DNA of 64,000 nucleotides from Blastocatellia bacterium (GCA_033856235.1 JAWVFI010000078.1:6062-70061); one strand, 5' to 3'. Shown: positions 14,003-42,910, numbered from the stretch's first letter. Numbers and translations: made by a program. Notes: a model not told the origin generated them from the letters alone.

Positions 14003-14202
14003 GCCGTTGCGAGCAAATCGGGGTATAATCATCGGGCATTGAGCTTAGAAAAGACTGTCTCCCAATAATCGAAGACTGCTCGCCCAGCATCACAGTCTTT
14101 ACGGCCTCCGTAAGCGGGATAAAACACTGTTTCAGCACGATCCTTCCGTTGTTCTGGAAGCGATGTTGGTGTTACCTCATTCGGTTCAAGGAACAAAGCC
14201 TC

Positions 14203-20200: not shown

Positions 20201-21123
20201 TGACGCTCGTCAATCCCGTAAACGGCGCCCTCGGAGACATTCCCACAGCAACCGTCATGCTGCAGGACGACGACACGGCCACACCGTCGATCAATCCGCT
20301 GGATAACGCCGCGTTCTTTGTGCGGCAACAGTATTTGGACTTTCTGAGCCGGGTTCCCGATTCAGGAGGTTTCACTTACTGGACCGAACAAATCACGGAC
20401 TGCGGGATGGACCCAATCTGCATAAGAAATCGCCGCGTTGATGTTTCGAATGCGTTCTTTTATGAACTGGAATTCCAACAGACCGGGGCTTACGTCTACC
20501 GCGTCTATCGCTCCGCTTTCGGAAACAATCAGCCGTTTCCAAATCCCGACTTCGACCCCTCTCATCCCGGTGAAGAAAAGAAGGTGATTGCCTACAAGGC
20601 GTTTGTAGCCGATCGCTCGCGCGTACTCGGAGGCTCCAGCTTGGCGCAGACGCAGTTGAATCTCGCAAACGCGTTTGTCCTCAGGCCTGAATTTGTGGCG
20701 AAGTATCCCGTAAGCCTGGATGGTCCCGCATTCGTCGATGCGATGTTGGCAACGATCAAGAATGACATTGGTGCGGATCTAGCCTCTCAGCGTCAGGCGT
20801 TAATTGATCTTTATAATTCGGGCGGGCGCGGAGCCGTGCTGTATCGCCTGGCCGACGACAACACGCAAACGAACCCAATCAACAATCGCGCCTTCATCGA
20901 TGCCGAATATGGCCGGTCGTTTGTGGCCACCCAGTACTATGGTTACTTACGTCGCGATCCAGACATGGGAGGGTTCCTGTTCTGGCTGGGCCAGGTCAAC
21001 AGTGGACCGTTGCGTGACGTGGCGAAGCAACACGCGATGGTTTGCTCGTTCATCACTTCCACTGAATATCAGGAGCGCTTCAGCACCGTCGTGACGCATA
21101 GCAATGCTGAGTGCGGGCCGTGA
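14203..21123 (+). CDS. Giant secreted mosaic repeat protein (SBBP repeats, BNR-type propeller, DUF11, PD40/TolB-like, CarboxypepD_reg-like, Calx-beta, DUF4214)
   Basis: A single 6.9 kb ORF. The ATG at 14203 gives a signal-like N-terminus (ALWSFLILGAIFSVLSA). SBBP-type YSTFLGG...GIAVD repeats occur in two blocks. Seven [FY]K[ST]xNGGxxW blades lie between them. PD40-like xWSPDGTxIAF occurs five times. The C-terminus matches the 25659-27479 protein. Confidence 0.85.
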   Translation: MQVKTSVLLVFGRRNRSALWSFLILGAIFSVLSAKPFERLLTSSAHPEDVTTAGPPRLPEASSNIAVTNQAYGNLPISFAANEGQAHSDAKFIARGSGYGLFLTSAGAVLSLTHSLDQQKTDVAPEVRPTSAKQASAAVSLRLLESRRQPRITGRDELPGKLNYFIGNDPGKWRTDIDTYAKVHYENVYRGIDVVYYGNQRELEYDFVIAPRANPHHIKLQFRGASLSIDEETGDLILHTPQGDVRQRKPLAYQQIKHQRQEVAVAYQLEQDTVTFKIGEYDTSRQLVIDPVLIYSSFLGGANSEQGLGIAVDAQGSAYLTGATTSSDFPLAGALQSIKDAVNDAFVVKLNPAGTALIYSTYVGANGDDIGNAIAVDGNGNAYVAGLTGSGSFPATAGAYQTSKSGVIDGFVFKLNPAGTQLLYATFLGGENNDQAFGVAVDSSGRAYVVGRTDSRRLGFAPVQRHGSPIYKTTDSAAQWSASDTDLNASTVTSFVFDPNNSNIVYAGSNYGVFKTINAGGNWMATGTSQPALSAALTNALAIDPSNSSIVYAGTSSGIFKTTNAGATYTAKNTGLGSTFINALAIDPLTPNTIYAGTQLGIFKSTNGGDNWAEIKNGISGTSPRVTRVVIDPTNSAIIYIATNRGMFKSTNGGSLWTVINNGLALSGTPQITGLAIDPINPATLYASGLGTAGLVLKTVDGGLNWNVNDAGLPSSVSNLTVDPITPTRVYAGTSLAGIYKSTNGGANWTAANTGYANLFALAVVIDRNNPATIYAGSNIGNDAFIVRLNAAGELDYFTNLGGNETDEARGVAVDAGNNAYIVGSTNSPNFPLANAFQPTLSGISDAFVTQLNSSGSALNYSTFLGGSGTEQGRAIAVRGGSAYVTGVTTSQTFPVLNAFKSTLADFDTDAFVAKFNSSGMALGYSTFLGGSGIDQGLGIAVDSNDAIYVAGSTQSADFPLVAGAPQSDNGGNTDGFVTRLNPAPGNLFYSTFLGGQSTDQVNGIAVDPVGNAYVVGTTSSSNFPTVTPLQATLKVTDAFVAKISLSPDLVLSMTGSPNEINYGANITYTITVNNGGEIAAQNVKLSDTLVSGTGVISISPSQGTCSGNRFINCDLGTINPGSPVTVTLVVRPPAVTPMVNTASVSTTTSEATTANNSATLNTQVNFTDLVIKNTSALQQTPINGINTYIVTVTNKGPAAALGVTVTNNLPSATTFVSCTSSGLGLCSGSGNSRTASIPSLAVNGSFTTTFATRVNSNVAVGTVVSDTASVVSTTPDINPNNDAATATTVVKAAAPPKQNGLIACTAGAGTGTSGTNNIWLMNPDGSGLTPLTLNTPAEDVAPVWSPDGTRIAFVSRAPNAYGLYVMNADGSNISRLTDSNQDQSPTWSPDGTRIAFGGSRNSDPYGILVVNSDGTNLKRLSNGNLPSWSPDEVSIAFNGAFGFMIMNADGTNIRSIPLPGLPFGAMQFRWSPDGTKLAFTGLENGSFGRSIYTVSPDGTGLTKIPNSSGGQSPAWSPDGTKIVFYGIINAGLPTGIYTIDLAGTGLTKISGDLTEVDTPDWQTQPPNFSPLSPTYSIAGHLQNSSGTSLNSTVQITGSAATSISTDNSGNYIFRGLPSGGNFTVTPLPFGMPTSSPSNRVYNNLTANVTGADFVLTYPPIPDITGVIVNQSGSPMTGVKVGIRNVFPETDVFTDANGAYKFSNISTRTGSFILPFNTGAFANYIFDPGVITYQTPTGNNFIGREKLASISGQVRVGGAGKSGVIVSTGNPQALSTTTDANGNYTLTGVGEGVTLAVLVSTSTYPFAPSSRIVPVNGPTTGIDFDAPANQSLIYGHVGDASSLSLEGVTLTLSGGANLTAQTDSQGNYSLGPVAANLAYTLTPAKLGYSFVPAATQIPNLTSNTQTGFTAYLNSVAFYYTSANVATGEGSGSISLTVVRSGLLSDPVKVDYKTLDGSARQRTDYTTMAGTLSFAPQQQSKTIVIPLNDDAYVEGDETFSVTLVNPVNGALGDIPTATVMLQDDDTATPSINPLDNAAFFVRQQYLDFLSRVPDSGGFTYWTEQITDCGMDPICIRNRRVDVSNAFFYELEFQQTGAYVYRVYRSAFGNNQPFPNPDFDPSHPGEEKKVIAYKAFVADRSRVLGGSSLAQTQLNLANAFVLRPEFVAKYPVSLDGPAFVDAMLATIKNDIGADLASQRQALIDLYNSGGRGAVLYRLADDNTQTNPINNRAFIDAEYGRSFVATQYYGYLRRDPDMGGFLFWLGQVNSGPLRDVAKQHAMVCSFITSTEYQERFSTVVTHSNAECGP

Positions 21124-27894: not shown

Positions 27895-29301
27895 ATGTTA
27901 GGTGAAAATTTGCCTCTAACCGCAGTATCTGCAGTCCTCGCTCTCATCTATCTTCTCCAACCTTCTCCGGCCGCATCGCAAACAGTTGCGCCGCCCCCTA
28001 ACGAAGTCCGGGCCCTCTGGGTCGTGCGCACCACGCTGACCTCACCCGAAAGAATCCGCACCATGGTCAACGCCGCCGCCGACAACGGCTTCAACACAAT
28101 CATCGTCCAGGTGCGCGGCCGCGGCGACGCCTACTACCGCTCGCATCGAGAGCCGCGCGCCAACGAACTGAAAGATCAACCCGCAGACTTCGATCCATTG
28201 GCAGTGACTTTGACAGAAGCAAAGCGCCGAGGCTTGAAAGTCCACGCTTGGGTCAACACCAGCCTCCTCGCAAACCTGGACGCGCTTCCCACAAATCCCG
28301 AGCACATCTACAACAAGCATCCCGAGTGGCTCGCCGTCCCCCACCCAATCGCCGCCGAGCTCTACAATATATCGCCGAAAGACCCGCGCTACCGGGCCCG
28401 CATCGTCGAGTGGTCCAAAGCCAACACAGCCGAACTCGAAGGTGTCTACACCGGCCCCGCGAATGCAAAAGTCCGCGAACACATTTACCAAATCTGGATG
28501 GACATTCTGAAGAACTACGATGTAGACGGCATTCACTTCGACTACATCCGCCTAGCCAGCCCCGACTTCGACTACAGCCGCACGTCCCTGGATAACTTCC
28601 GCAAATGGCTGGATCAGCGAGGAGCAGGTGCAGTCAGCAGGAGCAGCCGGAGCACTGTGCCTGGCGAGTCTCGCGGTACTCGCCAACCTTCCCTCTTTGC
28701 CCTTAGCTCTTTGCCCGGCGCAGCCGGCCTTCCCCCTTCCCTCTTTGCCCTTAGCCCTATGCCTGGCCAGCCCTTTGCCCTGCGCCCTTTGCCCGAGGGC
28801 TCCGCCCTCGCCCTCGCCGAAGCCTACCCCGAAAGATTCGCCGACTTCCAACGCGAACAAATCACCACGTTGGTCCAACGCATCTACCGCGAAGTCAAAC
28901 GCCGCAAACCAAACGTCACCGTCTCCGCCGCAGTCTTCGCCAACGACGAAAACGCCTACACGCGAAGATTTCAAAACTGGCGCCGCTGGCTCCAAATGGG
29001 AATCCTCGATGTAGTCTGCCCCATGGCCTACACGACAGACACAGAGATCTTCAAAACCCAAATCAAAACTGCCACCCAACTCGCCCACGCGAATAACAAA
29101 CAAATCTGGTCCGGCATGGGCGCCTACCGCCTCCCCATAGAATCCACAGTGGAAAAAATAAACGCCGCCCGATCCCTTAAATCAGACGGCATAATCCTCT
29201 TCTCCTACGATTTCACAATTCGCCCCAGCGCCCTCAACCCCAACGCCGACTACCTCGAACGAGTCCGCCATAACGCATTTGAGCGCCCGGGACCTGAATG
29301 A
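27895..29301 (+). CDS. Glycoside hydrolase-like family 10 (GHL10/YngK-like, DUF187) protein
   Basis: VRALWVVRTTL, GFNTIIVQVRGRGDAYY, VHAWVN and DGIHFDYIRL motifs with a signal-like N-terminus. It contains an in-frame low-complexity insert encoded by repeat-type DNA (28615-28800). Confidence 0.8.
   Translation: MLGENLPLTAVSAVLALIYLLQPSPAASQTVAPPPNEVRALWVVRTTLTSPERIRTMVNAAADNGFNTIIVQVRGRGDAYYRSHREPRANELKDQPADFDPLAVTLTEAKRRGLKVHAWVNTSLLANLDALPTNPEHIYNKHPEWLAVPHPIAAELYNISPKDPRYRARIVEWSKANTAELEGVYTGPANAKVREHIYQIWMDILKNYDVDGIHFDYIRLASPDFDYSRTSLDNFRKWLDQRGAGAVSRSSRSTVPGESRGTRQPSLFALSSLPGAAGLPPSLFALSPMPGQPFALRPLPEGSALALAEAYPERFADFQREQITTLVQRIYREVKRRKPNVTVSAAVFANDENAYTRRFQNWRRWLQMGILDVVCPMAYTTDTEIFKTQIKTATQLAHANNKQIWSGMGAYRLPIESTVEKINAARSLKSDGIILFSYDFTIRPSALNPNADYLERVRHNAFERPGPE
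28621..28795. repeat. Repeat-word DNA (GCAGGAG then CCTTTGC words) embedded in frame in the GHL10 gene
   Basis: ggagcaggtgcagtcagcaggagcagccggagc is followed by ccctctttgcccttagc, which occurs twice, and by ccctttgccctgcgccctttgccc. The translation is SLFALSSLPG...SLFALSPMPGQPFALRPLP. Confidence 0.75.
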
Positions 29302-29593
29302 TCATCGCCCCATTCGGGCACCGACTCTGCGTCTAGCCATCTGCAAGAAAAACCCCGAATTGACCAATGCCACAAAAAACTCTTGACTAATTCCTTGCAT
29401 CTGGAATAAAGTCCGCCCGCCCTGCAGCAGTCAAGAAGGACGCCAACGTTCCTTACAGCTTTCTTTGGGCTAGCATCCAACGGTTTCTCAGCCGCTGGAC
29501 TCTCAGAGCCCGGCAGTTCAACGGTTTTAACTCGCTTCAAGATGAGTTTTCGCCCCTCTCTCTTGGCGGGACCATTTACTCACGATTCTCACT

Positions 29594-31987
29594 ATGGCAT
29601 TCAGCGATCAATCAGTTCTCAACCTAGACGGAAAGGATCCCGTTCCCGCGGCGGATCCTGTGTCCTCCGAGTCATCAGCCAGCGACGCTAAGGGAAAAGG
29701 TTTGGGCGAATCAGATGGCCCTCAACGAGTTTCGAGTCTCCCTGAACTATTCTCTTCGCCAGATGAGAGGAAGGAGATCGCTGTTGGGCTTGCGCTGGCC
29801 GGAAGCACACTGGAAGAAGCTCTTCGACATGTGCAAAGCTTCTACTCTACTTTGCAGCAGAGAATTGAAAAGGCCTATCACGCGCGATTGGCGCGCATAG
29901 GGGACGTCATCAGCAATCGCAAGACCGAGCTAGAAGAACGGCAGACAATTGCGAATAACAGTAAAAAGGAGCTTGAGACGCTGCGCATCGAACATGGCGA
30001 AGTAGAAAAAACAATACCGTTACTGGAACAACAAAACGGAGATGCTTGGCAGAAGATTCTCCACCATCGCTTCGAAACTGGAAGACAGTTTTTTGAGAAC
30101 CAGGAAGAACATCTTGAAGGCCTATTGAAGGATAACCGAAAAGCAATTCTAGCTGAGATCGACGCCCAAATTGAGATAGATCAGAAAATATACGAGATAC
30201 AGAAAACGAATCGCGATATTAATCGCAGTGAGTTCGAACGACGCGTCGAGCTGTGCAAGGAAGAAAAAACTAAGATTGAGAAACAAATTGAAGATGCCGT
30301 CAAATACACTGATAACCTCAAGACCATCGGCGTAACCCGGACGAGCGCCACGTTTCTGTTTGTTGCTGGATTTATTTCCATCGCCGGCGTTGGAAGTGTG
30401 ATTTCCAGTCTCTTACAAGGTCGTGAGCCAGGGGATGATTTGCTATCCAGGATTATCGGTAACCTCGATTTGATCGTGGGCGGACTGATTCCGGAACGAT
30501 TTGCACCCTTTAGAGCGCCTTTAAAACCATTCCTGTTTATAGTTTTACTCTTGCTTTTCCTGATCGTCTTCTACGTTGTTATTCGGTTTATGGACTGGCT
30601 CCTCAGAAAGTTTGATCTAAAAGGCTGGACCGGAGAGTCAGATGAAGACAGAGAATCTGACAAGGCAAACCGCGGAAACAAAACGCTGCACGAACAATTC
30701 ACTGGGTTTACTTCTTCAGCATTGAGTATTAAGTCGCAGCTTTCTAACTTCATTTCACTGGATTTGCAACGGAAAGACTACACAAAACTATTAGCCTCTT
30801 TCCCTTACTTGTTTCTTGGGGGAATTATCGTTTTTCTGTTTTCGGGAGTTGACAGTAATGGGAAAGTTTTGAGCTTAACCACTGCCTATGTTGGTGTCAT
30901 CTTCGCGCTTTTGGCCACCTCTGTTTCGGTTCTCTACGTAACAAAAGTAATTGAGCCGCGATGGGATCTCGCCGCGCGTACTCGAGGCAACCCTTCCCCC
31001 GTAGACGGCAATAACGAGCCAAAACAAAAGCGGGCCTTTGCTCGTTTTGTCGGAATCAACAGGGAGCTTGGTGCGCTGTTTCTGTTAATGGTTCTTTCAC
31101 TGATAGCTGCTGCCTTTATACCGACCCAGGATCAAGGCTGGAGATACTTTAGCGGCAACCAAATGAACTTGATTGTTTGGGGCCTCGTTGCTGTTTTCAT
31201 GTGTCTAAGCTCACTCGGTTTGGCCTATGGAATTATTCAAAGGGGCCTTTTCAGGGATGTAGATCATCTAATTCGAAGGCGTAATGAGTATCGGACCCTG
31301 ATTGAGAAATTTAGCATGCAGCCCGTGGTGGGAGGAGTGGGCTACGGCCGAAGTTATGGGACTGACTCGAGATCATCAAATTATTCAGATCTTTTGCAAA
31401 ACTTAGAGGAGCAGAGGCTCTGGTATGAAATGAATGAGATATTTGGAGACGATTTTGAATTCAACGAAAATCCTCCTGAAGATAAATCTCTACGTTCGCT
31501 TTGGTTTGTACTTCGTAAGCCAAAGAGAAAGGCGAGGCGCCCGTGGTTAGGCCTGCGGTTCAAGAAAGAGATAGCAACTGAGCCTCGAGTAATGGATTTT
31601 TCGGTAGCCCCTGAAGAGACAAAAGCTTTCATAACCACACGAGAAGATATAAAACGCCACCAAGCTAAAAAGGGTGAACTAACCGATCGGATCAAATTGC
31701 TTGTCGAGAAGATTAATTCACTTCATCCGGAATTGACAGATCTGCGATTAGGCAACATTGCTGACGAAGCACTCAAACGCAGCATCGAACAAGACTTGGA
31801 GAGTGAACTTACTTCCTTGATCATGGCGAGGGAAAAAGATTTGATGGAGTTCAGGGGAAGTTTCGCAATTGGATTTGTAGCTCGTAACCTTCTTAAAAAG
31901 GAAGGGGTCCTTCCAGGAGACTTAGCTTCCGAGAGAGAGCCTTATCAAAAGGTGGAAAACCCACAACCCAGCCCAACAGGGGTGTAG
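29594..31987 (+). CDS. Hypothetical 797-aa polytopic membrane protein with long N- and C-terminal coiled-coil regions
   Basis: About 250 aa of heptad-like Glu/Lys/Gln-rich sequence, then about six hydrophobic helices (e.g. FLFIVLLLLFLIVFYVVIRF, LIVWGLVAVFMCLSSLGLAYGII), then about 230 aa of charged helical tail. I see no catalytic motif. GC is low relative to flanks. Confidence 0.7.
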   Translation: MAFSDQSVLNLDGKDPVPAADPVSSESSASDAKGKGLGESDGPQRVSSLPELFSSPDERKEIAVGLALAGSTLEEALRHVQSFYSTLQQRIEKAYHARLARIGDVISNRKTELEERQTIANNSKKELETLRIEHGEVEKTIPLLEQQNGDAWQKILHHRFETGRQFFENQEEHLEGLLKDNRKAILAEIDAQIEIDQKIYEIQKTNRDINRSEFERRVELCKEEKTKIEKQIEDAVKYTDNLKTIGVTRTSATFLFVAGFISIAGVGSVISSLLQGREPGDDLLSRIIGNLDLIVGGLIPERFAPFRAPLKPFLFIVLLLLFLIVFYVVIRFMDWLLRKFDLKGWTGESDEDRESDKANRGNKTLHEQFTGFTSSALSIKSQLSNFISLDLQRKDYTKLLASFPYLFLGGIIVFLFSGVDSNGKVLSLTTAYVGVIFALLATSVSVLYVTKVIEPRWDLAARTRGNPSPVDGNNEPKQKRAFARFVGINRELGALFLLMVLSLIAAAFIPTQDQGWRYFSGNQMNLIVWGLVAVFMCLSSLGLAYGIIQRGLFRDVDHLIRRRNEYRTLIEKFSMQPVVGGVGYGRSYGTDSRSSNYSDLLQNLEEQRLWYEMNEIFGDDFEFNENPPEDKSLRSLWFVLRKPKRKARRPWLGLRFKKEIATEPRVMDFSVAPEETKAFITTREDIKRHQAKKGELTDRIKLLVEKINSLHPELTDLRLGNIADEALKRSIEQDLESELTSLIMAREKDLMEFRGSFAIGFVARNLLKKEGVLPGDLASEREPYQKVENPQPSPTGV

Positions 31988-32031
31988 CGAAGGGCTGGTG
32001 AGGGTTTGAGCGAAGGTAAATAGGATTTGGC

Positions 32032-33609
32032 ATGACAACACCGACTGACAATAACGGCTCTGGATCAACCATTGGCTCACGAAATGAGGAGAACGGAAGG
32101 GTCCGGGAGCCGACGCGTGAAAACTTCAATCGAATCCAACGAGCTTACGCAAAGGTTGCGGAGATCATACGACGTCTACAGCGAAATGAGCATCGACGTT
32201 TCGATATTGACGGTGATCAACTAAAAGAGTTACTTGCTGAACTCGCTAAGACTGAGAATGAAGCGACAGATACCGGCAAGAAGTTTATTAGGCCTGAATA
32301 TCCCGAAAACCCCCAAGATCGAACGGACTATCCCGACCCATCCGACGGCAACAACCGAAATTATAGAAAGCCCCCATACGCATACATAGACGAGGAGTGG
32401 CATTTGGGATGGACAGATGGTCGAGTCGGCCAACCGCCACGTCTCAATAAGGACATTGTAGAAGCTCGTGTTCGGACGGAGGCCGCCGAAGCACTGCTTT
32501 CGACCCAGGCCAAGATGGCCAGTAAGGAGACAACAATAGCGGGTCTGAGCGATCTACTTGATAAGAGAAAAGTGCGGCTAGAGTCCAAAGAAGACTTTTA
32601 CAATAAACTCTCTGACAAACGTAACCGAAACTACCTTGAGTTCTCCCGGTCTCTGGGCTACCTATATCTATTCTTCGCAATACTCCTGTTCTTAGCCGAT
32701 ATTCCCCTATCGCTAAAGCTTGTTGCTTCCGGTTTTCAAGTGCCAGTAGAGGCCGACCTGCCTGCCGGTGTTGCGCCCATTGGCTCGAGTACCAAGTTGC
32801 TCATAGATCACTTGTTGTTTCACCCGTGGGTTGTACTTGGAAATTTTTGGGAGTCGTTAGCGCTCGCCGCAGGGATCGCGTTCGTCGGCATTATTGTCAA
32901 ATACTATGTGGATCTAATTGTTTTGCGAGACGCGGAAACACCCGGGCCAAAAAAGCTGGCAATCGTGGTACTCACTGTAATCCTTTTCGGTTTTGTTACG
33001 ACAATTTTTTTCCTTGGTAACTTTCGTGCGGAACAGCAATCACAGGCCGTACGCCGCCAAGTAGAAACCAACTTGAGAAACGAAAATGAGGCTAACAAGA
33101 TTTTCAACAGCGGTAACCCTAATGCTTTGAGGAAGATCTTTCGAGAGAACGAGATTACTGAGGAAGTGACGAAGAGGTTCAATGATACGCAGGCCCTATC
33201 GGGAAGCAAATGGCTTATTCAAACTTTCATCGCTCTGACCCTATTACTCCCCATTGTCGGAGGCGTTTGCTTTTCTGCGAGCGGCAGCAAGTTGAGAAAT
33301 GCCAAGCAGTATTGGTTTGCCCTCCTGGATTACAAGAAGCTTGAAATTGAGTGCGACAAGTTGAGTCTCTCATTGAAGAAGGAAGAGGGAGATCTCCAAG
33401 GGCTACGTGAGAACCTGAAGCAAATCTTGGGTGATCCGGACCGCCTAAAAAGCCGGGCGGAACTGAAGCTGGGCTTATACCTTCACGGCTACGCACGTGG
33501 TCAGACAGTCCCGGAAACACTTGAAGAGGGAGCCAGCTTGTACGAGCGTTGCGAGAAAACGGTCACGAAACTGTTAGCAAAGAAATCACGGGAACGATTT
33601 GAAAGCTAA
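32032..33609 (+). CDS. Hypothetical 525-aa membrane protein with coiled-coil flanks
   Basis: About 205 aa of charged N-terminus, four hydrophobic helices (LGYLYLFFAILLFLADIPLSL, LALAAGIAFVGIIVKYYV, LAIVVLTVILFGFVTTIFFL, LIQTFIALTLLLPIVGGV), then a coiled-coil C-terminus. It starts 44 nt after the previous gene, with aggat before the ATG. Confidence 0.7.
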   Translation: MTTPTDNNGSGSTIGSRNEENGRVREPTRENFNRIQRAYAKVAEIIRRLQRNEHRRFDIDGDQLKELLAELAKTENEATDTGKKFIRPEYPENPQDRTDYPDPSDGNNRNYRKPPYAYIDEEWHLGWTDGRVGQPPRLNKDIVEARVRTEAAEALLSTQAKMASKETTIAGLSDLLDKRKVRLESKEDFYNKLSDKRNRNYLEFSRSLGYLYLFFAILLFLADIPLSLKLVASGFQVPVEADLPAGVAPIGSSTKLLIDHLLFHPWVVLGNFWESLALAAGIAFVGIIVKYYVDLIVLRDAETPGPKKLAIVVLTVILFGFVTTIFFLGNFRAEQQSQAVRRQVETNLRNENEANKIFNSGNPNALRKIFRENEITEEVTKRFNDTQALSGSKWLIQTFIALTLLLPIVGGVCFSASGSKLRNAKQYWFALLDYKKLEIECDKLSLSLKKEEGDLQGLRENLKQILGDPDRLKSRAELKLGLYLHGYARGQTVPETLEEGASLYERCEKTVTKLLAKKSRERFES

Positions 33610-33623
33610 GGAATACAAGAGCC

Positions 33624-34490
33624 ATGCCCTCGGGGGATAATACAAACAAGAAACGTCTTCAAAGGATGGTCGGAATCGCCTTTTTGGTGGTAGCGGTATG
33701 TAGCTCGCTTGCCTGTCCCACACCGCGGCCCCCTATCAAAACTGAGGCACCGCCTGTTTTCCTCTTGATTCTTGTGGACGTAACTCGAAGTTTGGAAAAG
33801 AGCGAAGTGCGACAGGTGGCAAAACTTGCATCTGATGTTCTCGATAGGTTTCCGGCCAATACTGACTACACGATCTATCCAATTCAGTGGGAAACCCAAA
33901 AGCCAACGGCCGTTGACGAAGGACATCCTCGAAGCAGTTCCCAGCCATTGACCGAGGATGAGAAAGGAGCACGCCGTAAGCGTATTGACGAGAAGATAGA
34001 AAGGTATTTCACCAACGTTAATGAGAAACAGCCGACTGACCGTTCGTGCATTTTAAATACGTTACATTTAGCCGACAAACACTTTTACCAAGCTACGGGC
34101 GGGTCGCCCGGGGACCCCACTAAGCAACCTTGCATGGAAATGGTGATTATCAGCGATATGATTGAACAGTGCGCTATTAACCCATCCAACCAAGGAATAG
34201 ACCTGCAGGAAATTCCAATTTCAGAGGCTTTAGAGTTGGTTAAGCAAATACCATCGCTACCCAATCTGTCTCGTCTACATATCTCAGTAATAATTCCAAC
34301 AGCAGAAGATGCGACGCCGTACGCGAGGAACAGACCCAGTTTAGGCGATCTCGAAACTTTCTGGAACGCGGTCTTTTTGCGCTGCGGTTTCAAACAGGAA
34401 GATCTTAGAGGCTTCAACTGGCTTCCCACAGTGCCAGCAAGATTTCAACAGGTCTGTCAGCCATCCCCAAGTCCCACTCCTAGCAACTAA
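33624..34490 (+). CDS. Hypothetical secreted/lipoprotein with a vWA-like (MIDAS-like) core
   Basis: Signal peptide with Cys26/Cys31. VFLLILVDVTRS (D-x-T-x-S), CILNTLHLA (Thr) and MVIISDMIEQ (Asp) are spaced as in a vWA MIDAS. It starts 14 nt after the previous stop, with aagga before the ATG. Confidence 0.6.
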   Translation: MPSGDNTNKKRLQRMVGIAFLVVAVCSSLACPTPRPPIKTEAPPVFLLILVDVTRSLEKSEVRQVAKLASDVLDRFPANTDYTIYPIQWETQKPTAVDEGHPRSSSQPLTEDEKGARRKRIDEKIERYFTNVNEKQPTDRSCILNTLHLADKHFYQATGGSPGDPTKQPCMEMVIISDMIEQCAINPSNQGIDLQEIPISEALELVKQIPSLPNLSRLHISVIIPTAEDATPYARNRPSLGDLETFWNAVFLRCGFKQEDLRGFNWLPTVPARFQQVCQPSPSPTPSN

Positions 34491-34527
34491 ATATCGTGTA
34501 CACGATATATGATTCAGACAACAGATC

Positions 34528-34561
34528 GCAAAGGGCCGTTTGACGGCCCTTTGGAGTTTTT
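34528..34561 (+). terminator. Intrinsic terminator closing the low-GC three-gene operon
   Basis: caaagggccg-tttga-cggccctttg, followed by gagtttttt. It is preceded by the small palindrome atatcgtgtacacgatat, directly after the stop codon. Confidence 0.75.
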
Positions 34562-34606
34562 GCTTTAGGGAGTCTCCGCCGTTTTCTGTCGGGAGACTTT
34601 CCGGGG

Positions 34607-34981
34607 TTAAGTGGTTGGTGGTTTGCCCGGGCCCTTCCGGGTGGGGTTTTTGTATTCGGACTTCTTTTTGAGTTTCATGGCCTGGACTTCGTTGGAGTCT
34701 TTGCCGAATTGGGCGGTGACCTGGTCTTTGGCGCCGAGCAGGGCGTTGTGGAGTTCCCATTGCACCGCAACGTGGTTGTCGCGGGCGGATTCGGCGGCGG
34801 CGGACGTCTGGACTTCGGTGTCGGCGGCCGTGGCGCGCCGAGCGTCGATGGCCGCAATGGCATTGACCGTGTACGCCGGGTTCGCCGGCGCGTAATTATT
34901 GATGTCTTTTAGAGCTGCCAGAATTTCCTGGTCCTGCGCGATGGCTGCCGGGCTGAGTCGGCGAGTTTCGTTTTTACCCAT
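34607..34981 (-). CDS. Hypothetical protein (124 aa)
   Basis: The ORF has host-like GC and runs convergent to the low-GC operon. I recognise no motif. Overlapping alternative-frame ORFs look like GC artefacts. Confidence 0.45.
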   Translation of the reverse strand: MGKNETRRLSPAAIAQDQEILAALKDINNYAPANPAYTVNAIAAIDARRATAADTEVQTSAAAESARDNHVAVQWELHNALLGAKDQVTAQFGKDSNEVQAMKLKKKSEYKNPTRKGPGKPPTT

Positions 34982-35100: not shown

Positions 35101-35335
35101 AATTGTCGCGCTTGACTGCAAGGGATTCACGCGTGCTTCGCTTGCATGCAGCCTTGCTTCCATTGCATTCACGCGCAGCTCCTTTGCAATCATCGCTGCT
35201 TCGATTGCATTCGGGCCTGCTTCCATTGGAGGGTCCGGTTGATTGCGTTGGATACAGGCCTGGTTGCGTTCGATGTGGGCTGTGGTTCCTTTGCAATCAG
35301 TGATGAATGGATTGCATTCTCAAAGGACGCAAACC
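35101..35335. repeat. Degenerate ATTGCA/TTGCAAT-rich repeat region
   Basis: Recurring units ttgcttccattgcattc, tttgcaatcatcgctgcttcgattgcattc, tgcttccattgga, gattgcgttgga and tttgcaatcag...ggattgcattc. No credible ORF. Confidence 0.6.
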
Positions 35336-35809: not shown

Positions 35810-37897
35810 CTACTTGGCTACTAGTTCGTCGGCGATGGCGTTGGCGTTGAAGACGTTGCGTAAGACTTCCAGCATGCCTCGGGAGTCAACGCTGATTGCT
35901 CGGTTAACGCTTTCGTCGTAGTAGAAGTCGCCTACCAAACTCTGGATGTTGCCATCGAAGATTAGGCCTACCAGTTCGGCGTTCTTGTTAATCGTGGGCG
36001 AGCCGCTGTTGCCGCCGATGATGTCGTTCGTGGAGACGAAGTTGAAAGGCGTCTTCAGATTGATTGAAGATTTCTTCTCCAGCCATCGCGGCGGCAGGTT
36101 GTACGGGAACGCTGATTTGAATTGAGTCGAACGATCGAAAAGGCCGCCAAGGGTTGTGAAGGGCGCGATCTTTTTGCCGTTTTCCGTGTAGCCTTTTACG
36201 GCGCCGTACGAGAGGCGCAGAGTGAACGTGGCGTCGGGATAGAGCTTGGTGCCTTCGCTTTCGAAACGGGCCTTTGCGATTCTGGCGTAGTTGGCGCGCT
36301 CGACGCCGGTGACTTCGCTTTCGTAACGCGTGCGTAGTTCGCGCGCGCGATTATCGATGAGGCGGGCCAACACGATCATCGGGTCGGTGGAAGCGTTGAT
36401 GGCCTGGCTGCCGCCGGCGGCCAGCTCTCTGCGGTAAGCGACGTCTTTCAGTTTCGTGCCATCAATCAATTCGGCGGCGCGAACTTCGGGAGTGTCGCCG
36501 TCCAGGATTTGCTTAGCCAGCGGGTTATCGGCGCCGAGCAACTCCACCATGAAGGCGAGGGAGTCGGCCAGCTTCAGCTTCTCGAAGTCGTCATGGATTG
36601 GCGCCGGTGAATATAGCGCTAACTCCAGCGAGGCGCGGCGCGCGTCGGTGAACTCGGGCAACCGCTGTGCGTTCGGCTTTTCACTTTCGGCGGCGAGGCG
36701 CACCAGGGTGCGCGCGATCCCGAAGTAAGCGGTGTTGAACCCGTTGCCCTGATCGAAAATCCGTCTTTCGCGAATGTAGGAAGGCAGGCCGGCATGTGCT
36801 TTGGCAATTGCGTCCCAGGCCTCGCCGTACATCTTCTGCCGTTCCGGATTCGTGGAAATGGCCTTGCGCAAGATGGCCTCGCCAAATTCCTTGCGATTCA
36901 TCAATTGTTTGTCTTTCAAACCGGCGAGCTGACCGCGATAAACTTTCAGGCTGTTCTGCACGCTGTTCAGTTCGTTCTGGGCCTGGCGCGATTGCTCTTC
37001 ACCGAGGGCCATATATGTTTTCAACATGGCTTCGCGGCGTTCCAACAAACGAGTGACGAGCGGGATGCTGGTATCGCGCAGTTCTCTCAGATGCGCAGCG
37101 GTGTTCAGGCGGGCCGTTGAGCCGGGATGGCCGGTAACAAACACGAGCTCGTTTTCTTTCGCGCCCGCGGTGGACCATTTCAGGTAACTCTGCGGATGCA
37201 CCGGCTGGTCGTTCTCGTAAACTCGCACGAGGGACATGTCGATGTTGAAACGCGGAAAATTGAAGTTGTCGGGGTCGCCGCCAAAGAAGGCGGCCTGAAA
37301 CTCCGGCACGAACACCAGGCGCACGTCGGTATATTTCTTGTAGCGATAGAGATTGTATTGGCCACCCTGATAGAGCGTGACTACGTCGGACCGGAACCCC
37401 GTGTCTTTGGTGGATTCGGCTTCGACGGCGGCGATTTCCGCGCGACGGGCGGTGAACGCTTCGGCATCGGAAGAGCCTGCTTTGACAGCGCCGTTGATGC
37501 GGGCGGTGACGTCTTCGATGCTTTCCAGGACATTCAGCTCCAGGCTGGGCGCTTTGATTTCTTCGGCGCGGGTGCGGGCGACGAAGCCTTCCTTGGCCAA
37601 ATCTTTCGTCGGCGTGCTGACTTCGCCGACAATGTCTTCGACGATGTGATAGTTGGTGAGCACCAGGCCGTCGCGCGAAACGAACGAGCCGGAGCCACCG
37701 TTGTTGAAACGCACGGAAGCGAGCTGGACCTTCTTCAGCCAGTCGTCGGTCACATCGAAGCCGTACTTGGCTTTGATTTCTGCGCGCGGTACGTTATTGA
37801 AAGTCCACATGCCTTCGTCGGCGCGGGCGGCGAACTGCAAAGACTGGAGCGAAAAGAGCGCAACGATGACGGCGCACAGAAGTTTTCTTAATCTCAT
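35810..37897 (-). CDS. S46 family dipeptidyl-peptidase (DPP7/DPP11-like serine peptidase)
   Basis: Signal peptide, then ADEGMWTFNN, VLTNYHIV (catalytic His region) and GGNSGSPTINKNAELVGLIFDGN (catalytic Ser); 695 aa. Confidence 0.9.
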   Translation of the reverse strand: MRLRKLLCAVIVALFSLQSLQFAARADEGMWTFNNVPRAEIKAKYGFDVTDDWLKKVQLASVRFNNGGSGSFVSRDGLVLTNYHIVEDIVGEVSTPTKDLAKEGFVARTRAEEIKAPSLELNVLESIEDVTARINGAVKAGSSDAEAFTARRAEIAAVEAESTKDTGFRSDVVTLYQGGQYNLYRYKKYTDVRLVFVPEFQAAFFGGDPDNFNFPRFNIDMSLVRVYENDQPVHPQSYLKWSTAGAKENELVFVTGHPGSTARLNTAAHLRELRDTSIPLVTRLLERREAMLKTYMALGEEQSRQAQNELNSVQNSLKVYRGQLAGLKDKQLMNRKEFGEAILRKAISTNPERQKMYGEAWDAIAKAHAGLPSYIRERRIFDQGNGFNTAYFGIARTLVRLAAESEKPNAQRLPEFTDARRASLELALYSPAPIHDDFEKLKLADSLAFMVELLGADNPLAKQILDGDTPEVRAAELIDGTKLKDVAYRRELAAGGSQAINASTDPMIVLARLIDNRARELRTRYESEVTGVERANYARIAKARFESEGTKLYPDATFTLRLSYGAVKGYTENGKKIAPFTTLGGLFDRSTQFKSAFPYNLPPRWLEKKSSINLKTPFNFVSTNDIIGGNSGSPTINKNAELVGLIFDGNIQSLVGDFYYDESVNRAISVDSRGMLEVLRNVFNANAIADELVAK

Positions 37898-39053: not shown

Positions 39054-41525
39054 TTACTCCCACGCTGGCGTGACCTGGCCCTGTGCGTCGTGCCAGTGCG
39101 GCGCCCACGCGAGGGTCAGAGTCATCACTGCTATGTTTGCCTTGGTCGGCTTCAACACCAGGGTCTCAAAAACCTCGGCCTGGCTATTCGATAAACTTTC
39201 CAGCGCCTGGGTTTCAGAATTGAATTGCGCGTTGAGATCGGCGAACTGCTGGCTGACAGCCCCAACCGTTTCCTGCGCGCGGCCAATGTCAGCGGATTCC
39301 TTCATGGAACGGCCGACGCCGCGAACGGCGGTGGTGGCCCGGCCCAGCGACGTGGCGCTGATCGCTTTGCGGCCCATGAACGACGATAACAAAGTGGCGC
39401 CGAATGAAATTGCTGTTTGCAGCTTCTGACCCCTGGCCTGTTCAGCTTCGCGTTCGACTGTTTGCTCAGCGCGCCGCTTGCGCTCCTCGAGGGCGGCAAA
39501 CTTCGGCGCATATTTTTGTCGCAAGCGTTCCACGGCGGCATCGCGCTGCTCGCGCGCGGCCTGCTGAGTGCGAAGTCGAAAGTCCTGCTCGGACTCTCCG
39601 GGGTTTGAGACCGCCTTCAAACTCGCACTCTTTTGCAGCTCGACCTTCTGATTGCGATAGAGCCACGCGGCAAAGTCTTTCTTCCATGTTTCGTAGTTCT
39701 TCGCTTTGGCAGCCGGTTTCGGCAACTCGGCAAACTGCGCGCCATCGGCCGGCGTTGGCTCCAGGTCGGCGACTGCGACATCGACGTTGGTGGCATTTTC
39801 CCAATCGACCGGAACGACCCCGTCATTGATGTTTGCGAGGACCGTCAGCTCCTGGGTCGTGTCGATCTCTTTTTTGTCCGTGAATCTCACCTGGGCCGAA
39901 CTGAGGACCATTGGGTGATAGACAAGAGTGGCGCCGCTTTGGTCGCTGCGAACCGGGACGAAGTATTGCGAGATTTCCGCAGGCAATACGGGCCGCTGAG
40001 GTTGCGCCGAAGGTTTGGCGGCTGGCGCGGCTTCAGCGCTAGTCGGTGCAGTGGAATCGGGAGACGCGGCCGAAGCTTTTACTGCTGCCGGCGATGTACC
40101 CTCGGCCGCCTTGATCGGATCCATCAGCGTTTTGATCTGCTTCTTAGTTAAAGGACCGCGGAGGTACGACATCGCCCAACGCGTCTCAAATAATTCCGGC
40201 CCGTCTTCGTGCACGTTGTTCAGCATGAAGATGCGGTTTCCCAGTCCGGCCAGTGTCTGTTCCATCTGTTGTCGATCAAACTTCAACCCAGTTCCCGCGG
40301 CGACGCCTTCCAAGCCTTCGATCACTTTTGATTTGTCACGCTCGGTCTGCAGTCGGCCAATGAACCAGGTGCCGGTATTCGACAGGCCCTTGTAATCAAG
40401 GTCCACCGGATTCTGTGTAACTAAGACCACGCCCAATCCAAATGCGCGCCCCTGTTTCAGCAAGGTCATGAGCGGCAACTTCGACGGCGGATTCGCCACC
40501 GGGGGAAAGTAACCCAGGATCTCGTCCATGTAGAGAATGGCCCGCAGGCTGGTGGTTCCCGACTGGGTTCGCATCCATCCCAGCACTTGATTGAGCAGGA
40601 GCGACACGAAGAACATGCGCTGGGAATCTTCCAGCATGTGCGCGATCGAGAAAATCGCCAGCCGCGGTTTGCCGCTCGACGTGTACAGCAGTTGTTGAAT
40701 GTCGAGCGGTTCACCTTCCATCCACGAACTGAAGCTCGGCGCCGCCAGCAGATTGTTAAGGGCCATCGCCAGTTCAAATCGATCCTTCGCCGGGAAGAAG
40801 GAATCAAGATCCATAACGCCAACTCTCGTCACCGGCGGCGACTGAATTTGAGTGATCAGGGCGGCAATATCCAGGTCGGTGCCGGCCATCCACGCCTGGT
40901 TGAGGATGGTCGAAATCAGAATGTGCTCGCGGCTTTTGAAAGGGTCAGCTTGAATACCCAGTAAACCCAGCAGGCTGGTGGCGGTGCTGCTGACTCGTTC
41001 AGCAAGAGCCTCTTCATCATCACGAATCGCTGGGGGCGGAGCAGAAAAAGACTTGAGGATAGAAACTGGAAATCCCGCGTTGCTGCCGGGCGTGTAGATC
41101 TTAAAATCGGCCGCCTCTCGCAGACGCTTTATCCGCGCGCCGTCCTGTCCCCATTTCGCCAATCCGTCTTTCCAGAGCTGGGCCTGTTGCGCAGCGTAGT
41201 CAGCTGCTGACATATTTTTCTTAGCCGCGTCTTCTTCGTTGATCCATGGCGCGAAGTCCTCGGGCTTCAGATCCGGGAACGTCAGCATCAAGTTTGCGAG
41301 ATCGCCCTTCGGATCGATCACGATGGCCGGAATGCCGTCAATTGCCGCCTCTTCCAGGAGTGACAGACAGAGGCCGGTCTTGCCGCTGCCAGTCATCCCG
41401 ACGCAGACGGCATGCGTGACCAGATCCTTGGAGTCGTAGAGAACCAGGCCTTCTTTGGCTTGCTTCGTTTCGAGATCGTAGGGGCGGCCCAGGTAAAAGG
41501 CGCCAAGTTTTTCAAAGTCGTCCAT
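39054..41525 (-). CDS. HerA/FtsK-superfamily (DUF87-like) P-loop ATPase with a long C-terminal coiled-coil extension
   Basis: The start at MDDFEKLGAFYLGRPYD (41525) avoids the heptamer repeat upstream. Walker A is VGMTGSGKTG and Walker B ILYMDEILGY, followed by VVLVTQNPVDLDY. About 300 C-terminal residues are Ala/Glu/Gln-rich. Confidence 0.8.
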   Translation of the reverse strand: MDDFEKLGAFYLGRPYDLETKQAKEGLVLYDSKDLVTHAVCVGMTGSGKTGLCLSLLEEAAIDGIPAIVIDPKGDLANLMLTFPDLKPEDFAPWINEEDAAKKNMSAADYAAQQAQLWKDGLAKWGQDGARIKRLREAADFKIYTPGSNAGFPVSILKSFSAPPPAIRDDEEALAERVSSTATSLLGLLGIQADPFKSREHILISTILNQAWMAGTDLDIAALITQIQSPPVTRVGVMDLDSFFPAKDRFELAMALNNLLAAPSFSSWMEGEPLDIQQLLYTSSGKPRLAIFSIAHMLEDSQRMFFVSLLLNQVLGWMRTQSGTTSLRAILYMDEILGYFPPVANPPSKLPLMTLLKQGRAFGLGVVLVTQNPVDLDYKGLSNTGTWFIGRLQTERDKSKVIEGLEGVAAGTGLKFDRQQMEQTLAGLGNRIFMLNNVHEDGPELFETRWAMSYLRGPLTKKQIKTLMDPIKAAEGTSPAAVKASAASPDSTAPTSAEAAPAAKPSAQPQRPVLPAEISQYFVPVRSDQSGATLVYHPMVLSSAQVRFTDKKEIDTTQELTVLANINDGVVPVDWENATNVDVAVADLEPTPADGAQFAELPKPAAKAKNYETWKKDFAAWLYRNQKVELQKSASLKAVSNPGESEQDFRLRTQQAAREQRDAAVERLRQKYAPKFAALEERKRRAEQTVEREAEQARGQKLQTAISFGATLLSSFMGRKAISATSLGRATTAVRGVGRSMKESADIGRAQETVGAVSQQFADLNAQFNSETQALESLSNSQAEVFETLVLKPTKANIAVMTLTLAWAPHWHDAQGQVTPAWE

Positions 41526-41535
41526 GAGTTTTACG

Positions 41536-41649
41536 GGTGAATGGTAAATGGTAAATAGTGAATGCTGATAGCAGCCGAACAGGGATCCAGGCAAAGGTAA
41601 TAGTAAAGAGCAGCTATCAATATTTACTATTTACCATTTACCATTTACC
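41536..41649. repeat. (GGTAAAT)n / (ATTTACC)n heptamer-word inverted repeat
   Basis: ggtgaat ggtaaat ggtaaat agtgaat (41536-41563) pairs with atttact atttacc atttacc atttacc (41622-41649), with a 58-nt centre. Confidence 0.9.
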
Positions 41650-41653
41650 CACA

Positions 41654-41976
41654 CTATCGTTGTTTTGCGATTACCATAGCCGAAATTTGTTCGTAAGTGG
41701 CTTCCGGAATAATGTTCTTCCGGACCAGTTCGGTCTTCTCGCGATAGGGGCGGCCGTCGATGATTTTTTGAGCGTAGGCTTCGCCAATTCCTGGCAGTCC
41801 GATCAATTCAGTCTTATTGCAGAGTTCAGATCGACTAAGCCCGCGTTGTTGTGATCGTTACCAAGCACCGCGCGCTTGAGATTGGCGTGGCTGTTCTCAG
41901 TACGGTTTCCGCATCCGATAGCGACGAGCACCGCCGCGAACAGAACAAAGGCAAGAAACTTTTCCATTGCGTGCAT
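41654..41976 (-). pseudogene. ComEA-like helix-hairpin-helix lipoprotein gene with an apparent 1-nt frameshift
   Basis: Frame A gives M(HAM)EKFLAFVLFAAVLVAIGCGN...GLVDLNSA, then a stop at 41803. Shifting one nucleotide near 41813-41821 continues [45 protein letters not shown] to the stop at 41654. Confidence 0.7.
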
Positions 41977-42095
41977 CATCCTACGCCTATGACGAATTAC
42001 TTTGTCCCGGGGGCCGTTAGGATACCAGCAAATTAGCAGAAAGTCAGAATTCGGAAATGGTATAATCGCCAACCCTATTAGCACGATGTTGTACT

Positions 42096-42202
42096 CTGAT
42101 TTCGTGTTCTTTGGTGAGCTTAGTGATTTCTTGGATCGTATGCCTCCGATTCGTAAGCGCACGATTCACGAATTACACGAAAACTCACGAAGTGTCACGA
42201 AC
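42096..42202. repeat. TTCGTGA/CACGAAx-word inverted repeat, copy 2
   Basis: ctgatttcgtgttctttggtgagcttagtgatttcttggatcgtatg (42096-42142) pairs with cgcacgattcacgaattacacgaaaactcacgaagtgtcacgaac (42158-42202). It aligns arm-for-arm with 25407-25513. Confidence 0.75.
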
Positions 42203-42351
42203 TAATAAATCGTGATTGACTCAGCGGACTGATAGAAATATCTTTGGTGCGTCTTTGTTAGTGCCTGCTTCTAATTTGCGCGGGGGCCTTGCGTTTCCGG
42301 GCGGTTTCACATTAGTCGCATTCTTAAAACCGCCACGCGGACTCTGACATC

Positions 42352-42882
42352 ATGAAAAATTTCTTGAGCGCAATGACGCTTCTACTGGTTTGCGCTGCAG
42401 CCGTTGCAGCGCAGGGCACCTGCGTGCGCTATCTCGAAACCGGCGCCGGTTTTTCGTTTTGCCCACCTGATGCGTGGACGATTCAGGAACAGGCCGGCGA
42501 GAAATACAAAGTTATGTTTGGCACCGGCGCAAACTTCAAGCCCAACATCAACATTAAGGAGCAGACGAGTGCGGGAACTTTGGCCGAGTATGCGGAACTG
42601 GCGAAGAAACTAATCGTGTCCAAAGAGAACAGGGAAAAGTTGGGCGCGACGACGCTGGTGGCGTTGGATCAATCAGAGTTCATTACTACCTCGGGTTTAT
42701 CGGGAATAAAAGTTACCTATCAAACTGAATTTAAGGGTTACCTAATTCGGAGCCTGCAGTATTACTTCGAGTTAAAGGGCGGGATAAAAATAATCGTTAC
42801 CGGTACCAGCCTGGTCGCGGACAAGGAAACGCTGGATCCGCTTCTCGACCGGTCGCTAAAGACTTTTCGGATTGAGAACTAG
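42352..42882 (+). CDS. Hypothetical secreted protein (possibly a PsbP/DcrB-like fold)
   Basis: Signal peptide MKNFLSAMTLLLVCAAAVAAQG; 176 aa. The FSFCPPDAWTIQ...KPNINI pattern is reminiscent of DUF1795/PsbP-like proteins. The assignment is weak. Confidence 0.5.
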   Translation: MKNFLSAMTLLLVCAAAVAAQGTCVRYLETGAGFSFCPPDAWTIQEQAGEKYKVMFGTGANFKPNINIKEQTSAGTLAEYAELAKKLIVSKENREKLGATTLVALDQSEFITTSGLSGIKVTYQTEFKGYLIRSLQYYFELKGGIKIIVTGTSLVADKETLDPLLDRSLKTFRIEN

Positions 42883-42910
42883 GCAGGGTTTTCCAGATTA
42901 AGTCTAACTA

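Follow-up and report, generated by a model that had tools for sequence, protein, structure and literature searches.

The three-gene operon analysed here, from the metagenome-assembled genome of a Blastocatellia bacterium (Acidobacteriota), encodes an exported lipoprotein with a predicted, divergent von Willebrand factor type A (vWA) domain (P3) together with two polytopic membrane proteins (P1 and P2) that resemble no known family. It lies in a 64,000-nt stretch of DNA (GCA_033856235.1 JAWVFI010000078.1:6062-70061), hereafter the window, meaning the whole stretch at its full length. The three genes recur side by side in distantly related genomes, and we propose, tentatively and with somewhat less than even confidence, that they form a sensor module with a membrane output, in which P3 would be the periplasmic input and P1 and P2 the inner-membrane responders. 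That this module serves in anti-phage defence or another biological conflict is, within the same model, a doubtful further step.

All three genes lie on the plus strand, P1 at 29594-31987 (797 aa), P2 at 32032-33609 (525 aa) and P3 at 33624-34490 (288 aa), separated by gaps of 44 nt (P1-P2) and 14 nt (P2-P3); ORF calling reproduced exactly the coordinates and gaps given in an initial annotation made from the sequence alone. That annotation also had a strong terminator closing the operon, which corresponds to an intrinsic-terminator-like hairpin and tail at 34529-34563 on the same strand: the hairpin (34529-34553) has an 11-bp stem with 7 G-C pairs and a 3-nt loop, and is followed by the T-rich tail GAGTTTTTGC. 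The next gene (34607-34981) is on the minus strand and convergent. Upstream of P1, an intergenic spacer of 292 nt (29302-29593, plus strand) had been described as an untranslated leader of about 290 nt. The length holds, but a leader is not demonstrated: an Rfam search of the spacer gave no match, and comparison of the orthologous loci revealed neither a small ORF that is kept nor any nucleotide conservation. We therefore treat it as a spacer and possible promoter region. It contains a single weak sigma-70-like site (29383-29412, 9 of 12 positions matching), the number of such sites being no higher than in shuffled sequences. The small genes called upstream of the trio in other contigs are mutually unrelated.

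P3 starts with a signal peptide ending in a lipobox (L-A-C31), the cysteine of which is kept in all eight aligned P3 orthologs once the gene start of one of them (L001) is corrected, and carries the motif D52-V-T-R-S56. An AlphaFold2 model built on an 80-sequence alignment reached a predicted local distance difference test score (pLDDT) of 90.8 and a predicted template modelling score (pTM) of 0.84. When this model was compared with the PDB using Foldseek, 132 matches were obtained at E ≤ 1e-3; the top 50 were all vWA-fold domains with a probability of 1.00, and target-normalised TM-scores reached 0.58, the value found with isolated I-domains. The matches include TFIIH p44, the Sec23/24 trunk, integrin I-domains, Bacteroides BatB, TRAP, pilus adhesins, CMG2/TEM8, complement C2a and CLCA1 (rank 45). 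At the sequence level, a deep P3 profile matched integrin alphaL I-domains best among PDB sequences (E = 0.03), their DGSMS falling opposite the DVTxS of P3. The window protein itself matched nothing in Pfam, NCBIfam or PADLOC, and Pfam VWA_2 was matched weakly by 4 of 80 P3 relatives (best E 4.6e-05). As P3 has the vWA fold and motif without a Pfam match above the gathering threshold, we place it in the superfamily as a member of a family that has not yet been modelled.

With the vWA/integrin I-domain superfamily, P3 shares the alpha/beta fold, a central sheet flanked by helices (Foldseek probability 1.00), as well as the order of the metal-ion-dependent adhesion site (MIDAS), namely D-x-[S/T]-x-S after beta1, a Ser or Thr in a helix-helix loop and an Asp after beta4. 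It differs in having signatures of its own, a divergent sequence and the form of a small periplasmic lipoprotein that, in the trio loci, is linked to P1 and P2. Searched exhaustively with a profile, a set of 1.84 billion cluster representatives yielded 230 relatives at E ≤ 1e-3, of which 91 also passed E ≤ 1e-10; most of the relatives have a length of 250-300 aa. Across 80 P3 relatives, the MIDAS residues D52, S/T141 and D178 are present in every one, T/S54 in 79 and S56 in 78, so that all five positions are kept among proteins of only ~20% identity, and in the P3 model they occupy the structurally expected places. The vWA-like MIDAS lipoprotein read from the sequence in the initial annotation is thus upheld in its fold and in D52-x-T-x-S, but not in its choice of fourth residue: the Thr near residue 91 is kept in 31 of 80 relatives, and the residue that actually fills the fourth position is S141, located ahead of beta4 in the loop between two helices. 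Further signatures of the family are SDM[ILV]E[EDQ]C, C142 and C183 (79 of 80 each) and W247 (80 of 80); the two cysteines would suit a periplasmic disulfide. The model additionally features a long inserted helix (111-135) and lacks a C-terminal extension. On this model, the MIDAS-type motif of P3 is complete, with putative metal binding, and the protein can be classed as a divergent vWA lipoprotein.

The P3 domain always follows a signal peptide, a lipobox or a transmembrane (TM) anchor. About 5% of the listed P3-family members are not lipoproteins; in these, an N-terminal cytoplasmic domain is joined through a single TM helix to the P3 domain. In four of these (P0060, P0101, P0134 and the L029/L030 gene) the cytoplasmic domain is TIR_2 (E 1.8e-32 to 6.7e-24), for which NADase or signalling activity is putative. 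A 5'-truncated member (P0040) has no Pfam match, and its N-terminal residues resemble, by eye, the C-terminal part of the P0060 TIR domain. Another (P0075), its gene cut by the contig end, has a protein-kinase C-lobe, of the Ser/Thr kinase type, ahead of the TM helix and the P3 domain. Three more (P0042, P0051 and P0054) carry an uncharacterised helical N-domain, which we considered as a possible relative of P1 or P2 and rejected, as no relation to either was found. Where the flanks of TIR fusions can be read (L029/L030 and L050), no P1 or P2 gene adjoins them; at L050, the TIR-TM-vWA gene (P0060, 443-2602) lies directly upstream of a ParD/ParE toxin-antitoxin pair, a neighbour of the conflict type. 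In the fusions, the TIR or kinase domain sits where P1 and P2 sit in the trio, and this is the strongest argument for regarding P3 as the input, or sensor, and P1 and P2 as the output. The TIR-bearing proteins P0060, P0101, P0134 and L030, with vWA outside, one TM helix and TIR_2 inside, also resemble the layout of Toll/IL-1 receptors, with the differences that the likeness concerns relatives of P3 and not the window genes, and that the sensor domain is vWA, not leucine-rich repeat or immunoglobulin.

The two proteins that would take the place of these effector domains have pronounced architectures of their own. P1 has six hydrophobic segments within residues 252-544, flanked on either side by polar arms of ~250 aa; its distribution of Lys and Arg (positive-inside) fits an N-in, C-in topology, and its heptad-like segments cover 163 residues versus 16 +/- 23 in shuffled sequences. 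Hydropathy and heptad enrichment agree with the layout initially assigned to it (an N-terminal coiled coil, about six TM helices and a coiled-coil tail). P2 is composed of a 203-aa N-terminal arm, about four TM helices within residues 206-415 and a 112-aa coiled-coil tail, and its initial description (N-terminus of ~205 aa, four TM helices, tail) agrees with both hydropathy and an AlphaFold2 model. In this model (pLDDT 71), P2 is all helical apart from a small predicted beta-hairpin (238-257) in the first outside loop: a 64-residue helix runs into TM1, TM3 and TM4 are prolonged outside as a helical hairpin of ~65 residues (330-392), and a 76-residue helix leads from TM4 into the cytoplasm.

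Searches for relatives of either protein found little beyond their orthologs. P1 is identical to the database protein QOD75_1694, annotated as a hypothetical protein, and a word-indexed search of 5.8 billion proteins retrieved only 9 homologs; for P2, a profile search yielded 16, and a concatenated P2+P3 profile retrieved P2 homologs only. Neither P1, P2 nor their divergent orthologs had a match above noise in Pfam, NCBIfam or PADLOC. The matches of window proteins to DUF2207_C, HemY_N and LmuB were discarded as being below threshold and confined to TM or coiled-coil segments, and a match to FlhB (Bac_export_2, E=0.0012) in one ortholog was dismissed since it was not reproduced in others. Weak PADLOC matches to LmuB and JetC (E 7e-6 to 4e-3) fell in coiled-coil segments only, and P2 and P3 had none. 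Profiles of P1 and P2 searched against PDB sequences produced only coiled-coil noise (E>=0.2), and the P2 model gave no Foldseek match at E<=1e-3 in the PDB or BFVD, with TM-scores of at most 0.24. A paralogous origin of P1 and P2 was likewise rejected, the hhalign probability being 1% with shallow profiles and 12% with deep ones. Thus, the initial statement that no family could be named for the two proteins stands after all these comparisons, none of which gave confident homology: as far as sequence comparison reaches, P1 and P2 belong to no known family and have no detectable relatives outside their own orthologs.

Their conservation is concentrated in a few positions. Among the residues of P1 that are kept in 21-22 of 22 orthologs (G259, G267, P404, E454-P455-R456, E491 and Y545-G546...G551), G259, G267, P404, P455, R456 and E491 are present in all 22 and E454 in 21. 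In P2, D223, K290, D294, R332 and C413 (27 of 27) as well as P225 and P407 (26 of 27) lie in or at the edges of TM helices, and two related motifs, both cytoplasmic, stand near the N-terminus (WHLGWTDGRxGQP) and at the C-terminus (YxHGYxRG...SLYxRCE). The invariant positions of P1 and P2 are charged or helix-breaking and lie in or beside TM helices, which argues that the TM cores probably have an active part, for example in gating, in binding ions or in passing on a signal, instead of serving as passive anchors.

Such residues could also belong to a channel or transporter of the housekeeping type, in which P1 and P2 conduct, P3 is a lipid-anchored vWA accessory subunit and no conflict is involved. 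Eukaryotic analogues of vWA channel subunits are alpha2-delta, which acts with Cav channels, and CLCA1, which acts with TMEM16A. The invariant intramembrane Asp, Lys, Asp and Arg of P2, the conserved Glu, Pro and Arg of P1, the presence of the CLCA1 vWA domain among the structural matches of P3 and the lack of an enzyme domain in the trio would all suit this explanation. Nevertheless, P1 and P2 are similar to no transporter or channel family by sequence or fold, a simple channel leaves the ~500 residues of cytoplasmic coiled coil in P1 unexplained, and the rarity and foreign composition of the genes (see below) speak against a core physiological transporter. We consider such a device highly improbable.

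The gene order P1-P2-P3, with short or overlapping gaps, is found in >20 other loci, which we annotated with hidden Markov models for P1, P2 and P3; the three-gene linkage implied by the initial annotation is thereby borne out in other genomes. Where a locus extends far enough, P1 and P2 almost without exception precede P3, including loci whose P3 is only 21-25% identical to the window protein. Two loci initially looked like exceptions: in one (L039), the trio is divergent, its P2 being frameshifted and its first gene encoding a smaller coil-TM-coil protein, and the other (L044) contains a P3 remnant truncated at the N-terminus. Mean pairwise identity between loci is ~27-31% for the trio proteins, and the pairwise identities of P1, P2 and P3 correlate with one another (rho 0.88-0.91, 21 loci), although pairs of loci are not independent and the p-values of this co-divergence therefore overstate its significance. 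The best explanation of these patterns is that the three genes would make up one functional unit, inherited and transferred together. As a separate observation, a distant two-gene relative is found in Spirosoma harenae (GCA_054776975.1, L010 8848-11380), where the first gene encodes a coil-TM-coil protein of 362 aa and the second a P2-like protein of 459 aa (E=3e-21 against the P2 profile) that has HGYxxG-type motifs at both ends; the neighbourhood is of the housekeeping kind, and no P3-like gene occurs within 21 kb.

The trio is rare. A motif-based scan with one genome per species detected it in 4 of 185,579 species genomes from two phyla (three Pyrinomonadaceae metagenome-assembled genomes and one from Saprospirales), a lower bound given that the scan sees only loci matching its motifs. 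A P3-motif scan of metagenome contigs yielded 35 loci. One partial P1, with 58% identity, carries the label Ktedonobacteraceae (Chloroflexota), which points to transfer between phyla unless it reflects a binning error. Searches of IMG/VR viral contigs and PLSDB plasmids did not find the trio.

The base composition of the trio sets it apart from its surroundings. Its GC content is 47.7%, compared to 56.2% in the rest of the window, and GC at third codon positions (GC3) is 47-52% in the three genes versus 66.7 +/- 4.0% in 25 other window genes (z = -3.6 to -4.8). Since the deviation is present at GC3, it is not merely a matter of amino-acid composition. Moreover, in 13 of 15 other long loci, from hosts with a flank GC of 47-67%, the trio has a lower GC content than the DNA on either side, which is the behaviour of an accessory module moving between genomes. 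The window contains no tRNA gene, and no integrase or flanking direct repeats were found beside the trio. The initial annotation had called the composition foreign on the basis of four hand counts of G+C, all of which are exact (23, 22, 29 and 37 of 60, the last in a comparison gene that is indeed GlmS, MCGIVGYVG...VTVE), and the computed GC and GC3 bear this out. Deviating composition was one of three points on which that annotation had staked its reading, the other two being the absence of confident homology for the membrane proteins and the recurrence of the linkage; none of the three turned against it. Taken together, composition, patchy rarity and varying neighbours are best explained by an accessory and mobile trio.

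Indeed, the neighbours vary considerably. In the window, the trio is flanked by a GHL10 hydrolase and a peptidase-like gene, and among the >20 loci no further gene is conserved beside it, barring an S8 peptidase and an extracytoplasmic function (ECF) sigma factor in two related loci. In these two (L007 5485-7593 and L012 3337-5580), an S8 subtilase of 700-750 aa is encoded directly upstream of P1 on the same strand, with the ECF sigma factor gene nearby on the opposite strand; the pair may be a clade-specific accessory. Conflict-like surroundings are seen in L008 (12289-20850) and L009, where the trio is directly followed by a 414-aa TIR_2 protein and an 845-aa nSTAND1 NTPase, which in L008 matches the PADLOC candidate PDC-M28B (E=8.5e-24); further on in L008, a tyrosine integrase precedes an M78-peptidase/HTH pair. 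This stretch looks like a defence or mobile island adjoining the trio. Other conflict-type neighbours are one TPR-CHAT protein and, at another locus, a large TPR protein together with a kinase. A different kind of neighbour is seen in L036 (91-3606), where two genes lie directly upstream of P1 on the same strand. The product of the first (585 aa) has no Pfam match, and that of the second (582 aa) contains a canonical VWA_2 domain (Pfam, E=1.3e-9), so the trio has a second, conventional vWA protein beside it here.

The S8 peptidase and ECF sigma factor, like the kinase-TM-vWA fusion, bring to mind transmembrane signalling outside immunity, in which P3 would bind an environmental or envelope ligand and P1 and P2 would relay the event to gene regulation or proteolysis. 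The helices of P2 also resemble chemoreceptor cytoplasmic bundles, a resemblance that stays at noise level. On the other hand, the two genes are neighbours in only 2 related loci among >20, neither P1 nor P2 was found to contain a DNA-binding, HAMP, histidine-kinase or anti-sigma domain, and TIR fusions are typical of immune or NAD-depleting outputs. We find this kind of signalling improbable.

A structural role has to be weighed as well. MIDAS-bearing vWA domains are classically adhesion modules, and integrin I-domains, TRAP and pilus adhesins figure among the structural matches of P3; long coiled-coil membrane proteins are typical scaffolds, and the neighbourhoods are mostly housekeeping. 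P3 could accordingly be an adhesin or tether, and P1 and P2 an inner-membrane platform coupling it to cytoplasmic or cytoskeletal partners, with no part in immunity. A precedent exists in CglB, an adhesin of the Glt gliding machinery of Myxococcus that is described as an outer-membrane lipoprotein with a vWA domain (PMC9946355); P3 would share with it the principle of a vWA lipoprotein working with a trans-envelope, inner-membrane-coupled complex. However, in this comparison, made by description only, no Glt or Agl genes were found among the annotated neighbours of the trio, and the TIR and kinase fusions have no CglB parallel. More generally, no gliding, pilus or secretion genes co-occur with the trio and no further conserved gene stands beside it, the trio has a foreign composition and occurs very sparsely and patchily, the TIR and kinase fusions of the P3 domain fit signalling better than mechanics, and a passive scaffold would not need the invariant intramembrane charges of P2. 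Envelope-structural or adhesion machinery therefore appears to us rather unlikely.

According to the sensor and membrane-output model that we prefer, P3 would be lipid-anchored in the periplasm, where its MIDAS-type vWA domain would serve as a metal-dependent, ligand-binding input subunit, while P1 and P2 would form an inner-membrane complex with their long cytoplasmic coiled-coil arms on the output side. Binding or loss of a ligand at P3, or engagement of an acidic residue of a partner via the metal site, would be passed to the TM core of P1 and P2. The core could then open an ion-conducting path, leading to membrane depolarisation and growth arrest, or, alternatively, relay a conformational signal along the coiled coils. 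The likeliest role of such a device would be envelope surveillance in a conflict setting, such as attack by phage or competitors. In this scheme, we infer physical contact among P1, P2 and P3, the direction of signalling, ion conduction and the immune role.

Several observations weigh against this model or its conflict role. We infer contact of P3 with P1 and P2 from synteny alone. The periplasmic loops of both membrane proteins are poorly conserved and so offer no obvious docking site or acidic MIDAS ligand, the only acidic candidate being D282 of P1 (Asp or Glu in 18 of 22 orthologs), and the confidence of the P2 model is moderate, as its pLDDT indicates. No PADLOC model matches components of the trio significantly, and none of the three proteins is a nuclease, NADase, protease or NTPase. 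The TIR and kinase fusions, which suggest the assignment of input and output, make up only the ~5% of listed family members mentioned above. Most neighbourhoods are housekeeping in character (GH2, GalT, DeoC, ABC-F, DnaE, GSDH and hydrolases), so there is no consistent defence-island signal and the defence-island argument is weak. The envelope or conflict function suggested in the initial annotation gains circumstantial support from the TIR and kinase fusions and from the few conflict-type neighbours, but it remains unproven in view of the housekeeping neighbours and the lack of a match to any defence model.

Comparison with known systems places the trio near several of them without identifying it with any. 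Zorya offers a conceptual analogy: its ZorAB complex sits in the inner membrane, has one domain facing the envelope and extends a very long coiled-coil tail into the cytoplasm, and the proposal is that it detects invasion at the envelope and transmits the signal to the inside (PMC11946911). The likeness is not one of homology: neither P1, P2 nor their divergent orthologs match PADLOC ZorA or ZorB, Pfam MotA_ExbB or OmpA, their topology is different (6 and ~4 TM helices), a peptidoglycan-binding domain and ZorC/ZorD-type partners are missing, and the envelope-facing part of the trio is a separate vWA lipoprotein. The vWA-MoxR ternary conflict systems (with VMAP or iSTAND) combine vWA with effectors that can be exchanged, TIR among them (Kaur et al. 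2020, PMC7159879), and some versions are membrane-proximal. These systems, however, need a MoxR AAA+ ATPase along with VMAP or iSTAND, and their vWA proteins are cytoplasmic with C-terminal effectors (PMC7159879), whereas the trio has no AAA+ ATPase or other NTPase in the operon or conserved beside it in >20 loci, and its vWA protein is exported and lacks a C-terminal extension. Finally, P3 resembles the BatB vWA domain of the Bat operon at the fold level only (3ibs, E=1.3e-5), and none of the remaining Bat components, which include TPR proteins, MoxR and DUF58, is linked to the trio. As their defining components were not found, we rejected the identification of the trio as a Zorya, vWA-MoxR or Bat system. 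A full-text literature search, covering a subset of journals, returned no description of the trio or of TIR-TM-vWA proteins; per the literature searched, the trio has not been described before. What is known, then, is the principle of a membrane-associated vWA sensor-output module; what is new is a version built from two families without detectable relatives.

The window holds a few further features outside the trio. The gene for the GHL10-family hydrolase (27895-29301) contains a 33-nt direct repeat in three copies (28687-28797), which give the protein a low-complexity insert of repeated 'PSLFALS..P'. A degenerate 21-nt tandem repeat in ~5-8 copies (35125-35314, consensus ATTCAGCGCTGCTTCCATTGC) occupies a low-coding stretch between a 124-aa ORF and the peptidase-like gene (35810-37897); on its minus strand, it could encode a peptide of ~49 aa with heptad repeats (MEAGPNAIEAAMIAKELRVNAMEARLHASEARV...). 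Upstream of the trio, on the plus strand, lies a very large ORF of 2324 aa (14149-21123). A second low-GC patch (41300-42900; 49.6% versus ~56% around it) holds a 176-aa ORF (42352-42882) and may be another small acquired segment.

To our knowledge, most bacterial immune sensors described so far are cytoplasmic, and sensors of envelope attack are few, Zorya being the main example. It is conceivable, though unlikely in our estimate, that the trio and its TIR- and kinase-TM-vWA relatives represent an unrecognised class of bacterial 'outside-in' immune receptors, in which a periplasmic MIDAS-vWA domain would detect phage tail or ejection proteins, bacteriocins or cell-wall damage and the outputs would be interchangeable, being a TIR domain, a kinase or a P1/P2 effector that collapses the membrane potential. 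If this is true, a periplasmic, metal-dependent vWA receptor would provide a tractable entry to the sensing of extracytoplasmic threats in bacteria, as well as a bacterial parallel to the Toll/IL-1-receptor layout. Even if the trio turned out to serve adhesion or ion transport instead, a lipoprotein-assisted membrane complex of this type would be new. Whatever its function, the trio adds three protein families, unmodelled in current databases and marked by sharp invariant motifs, to the biology of Acidobacteriota and the other poorly studied soil phyla in which it occurs.

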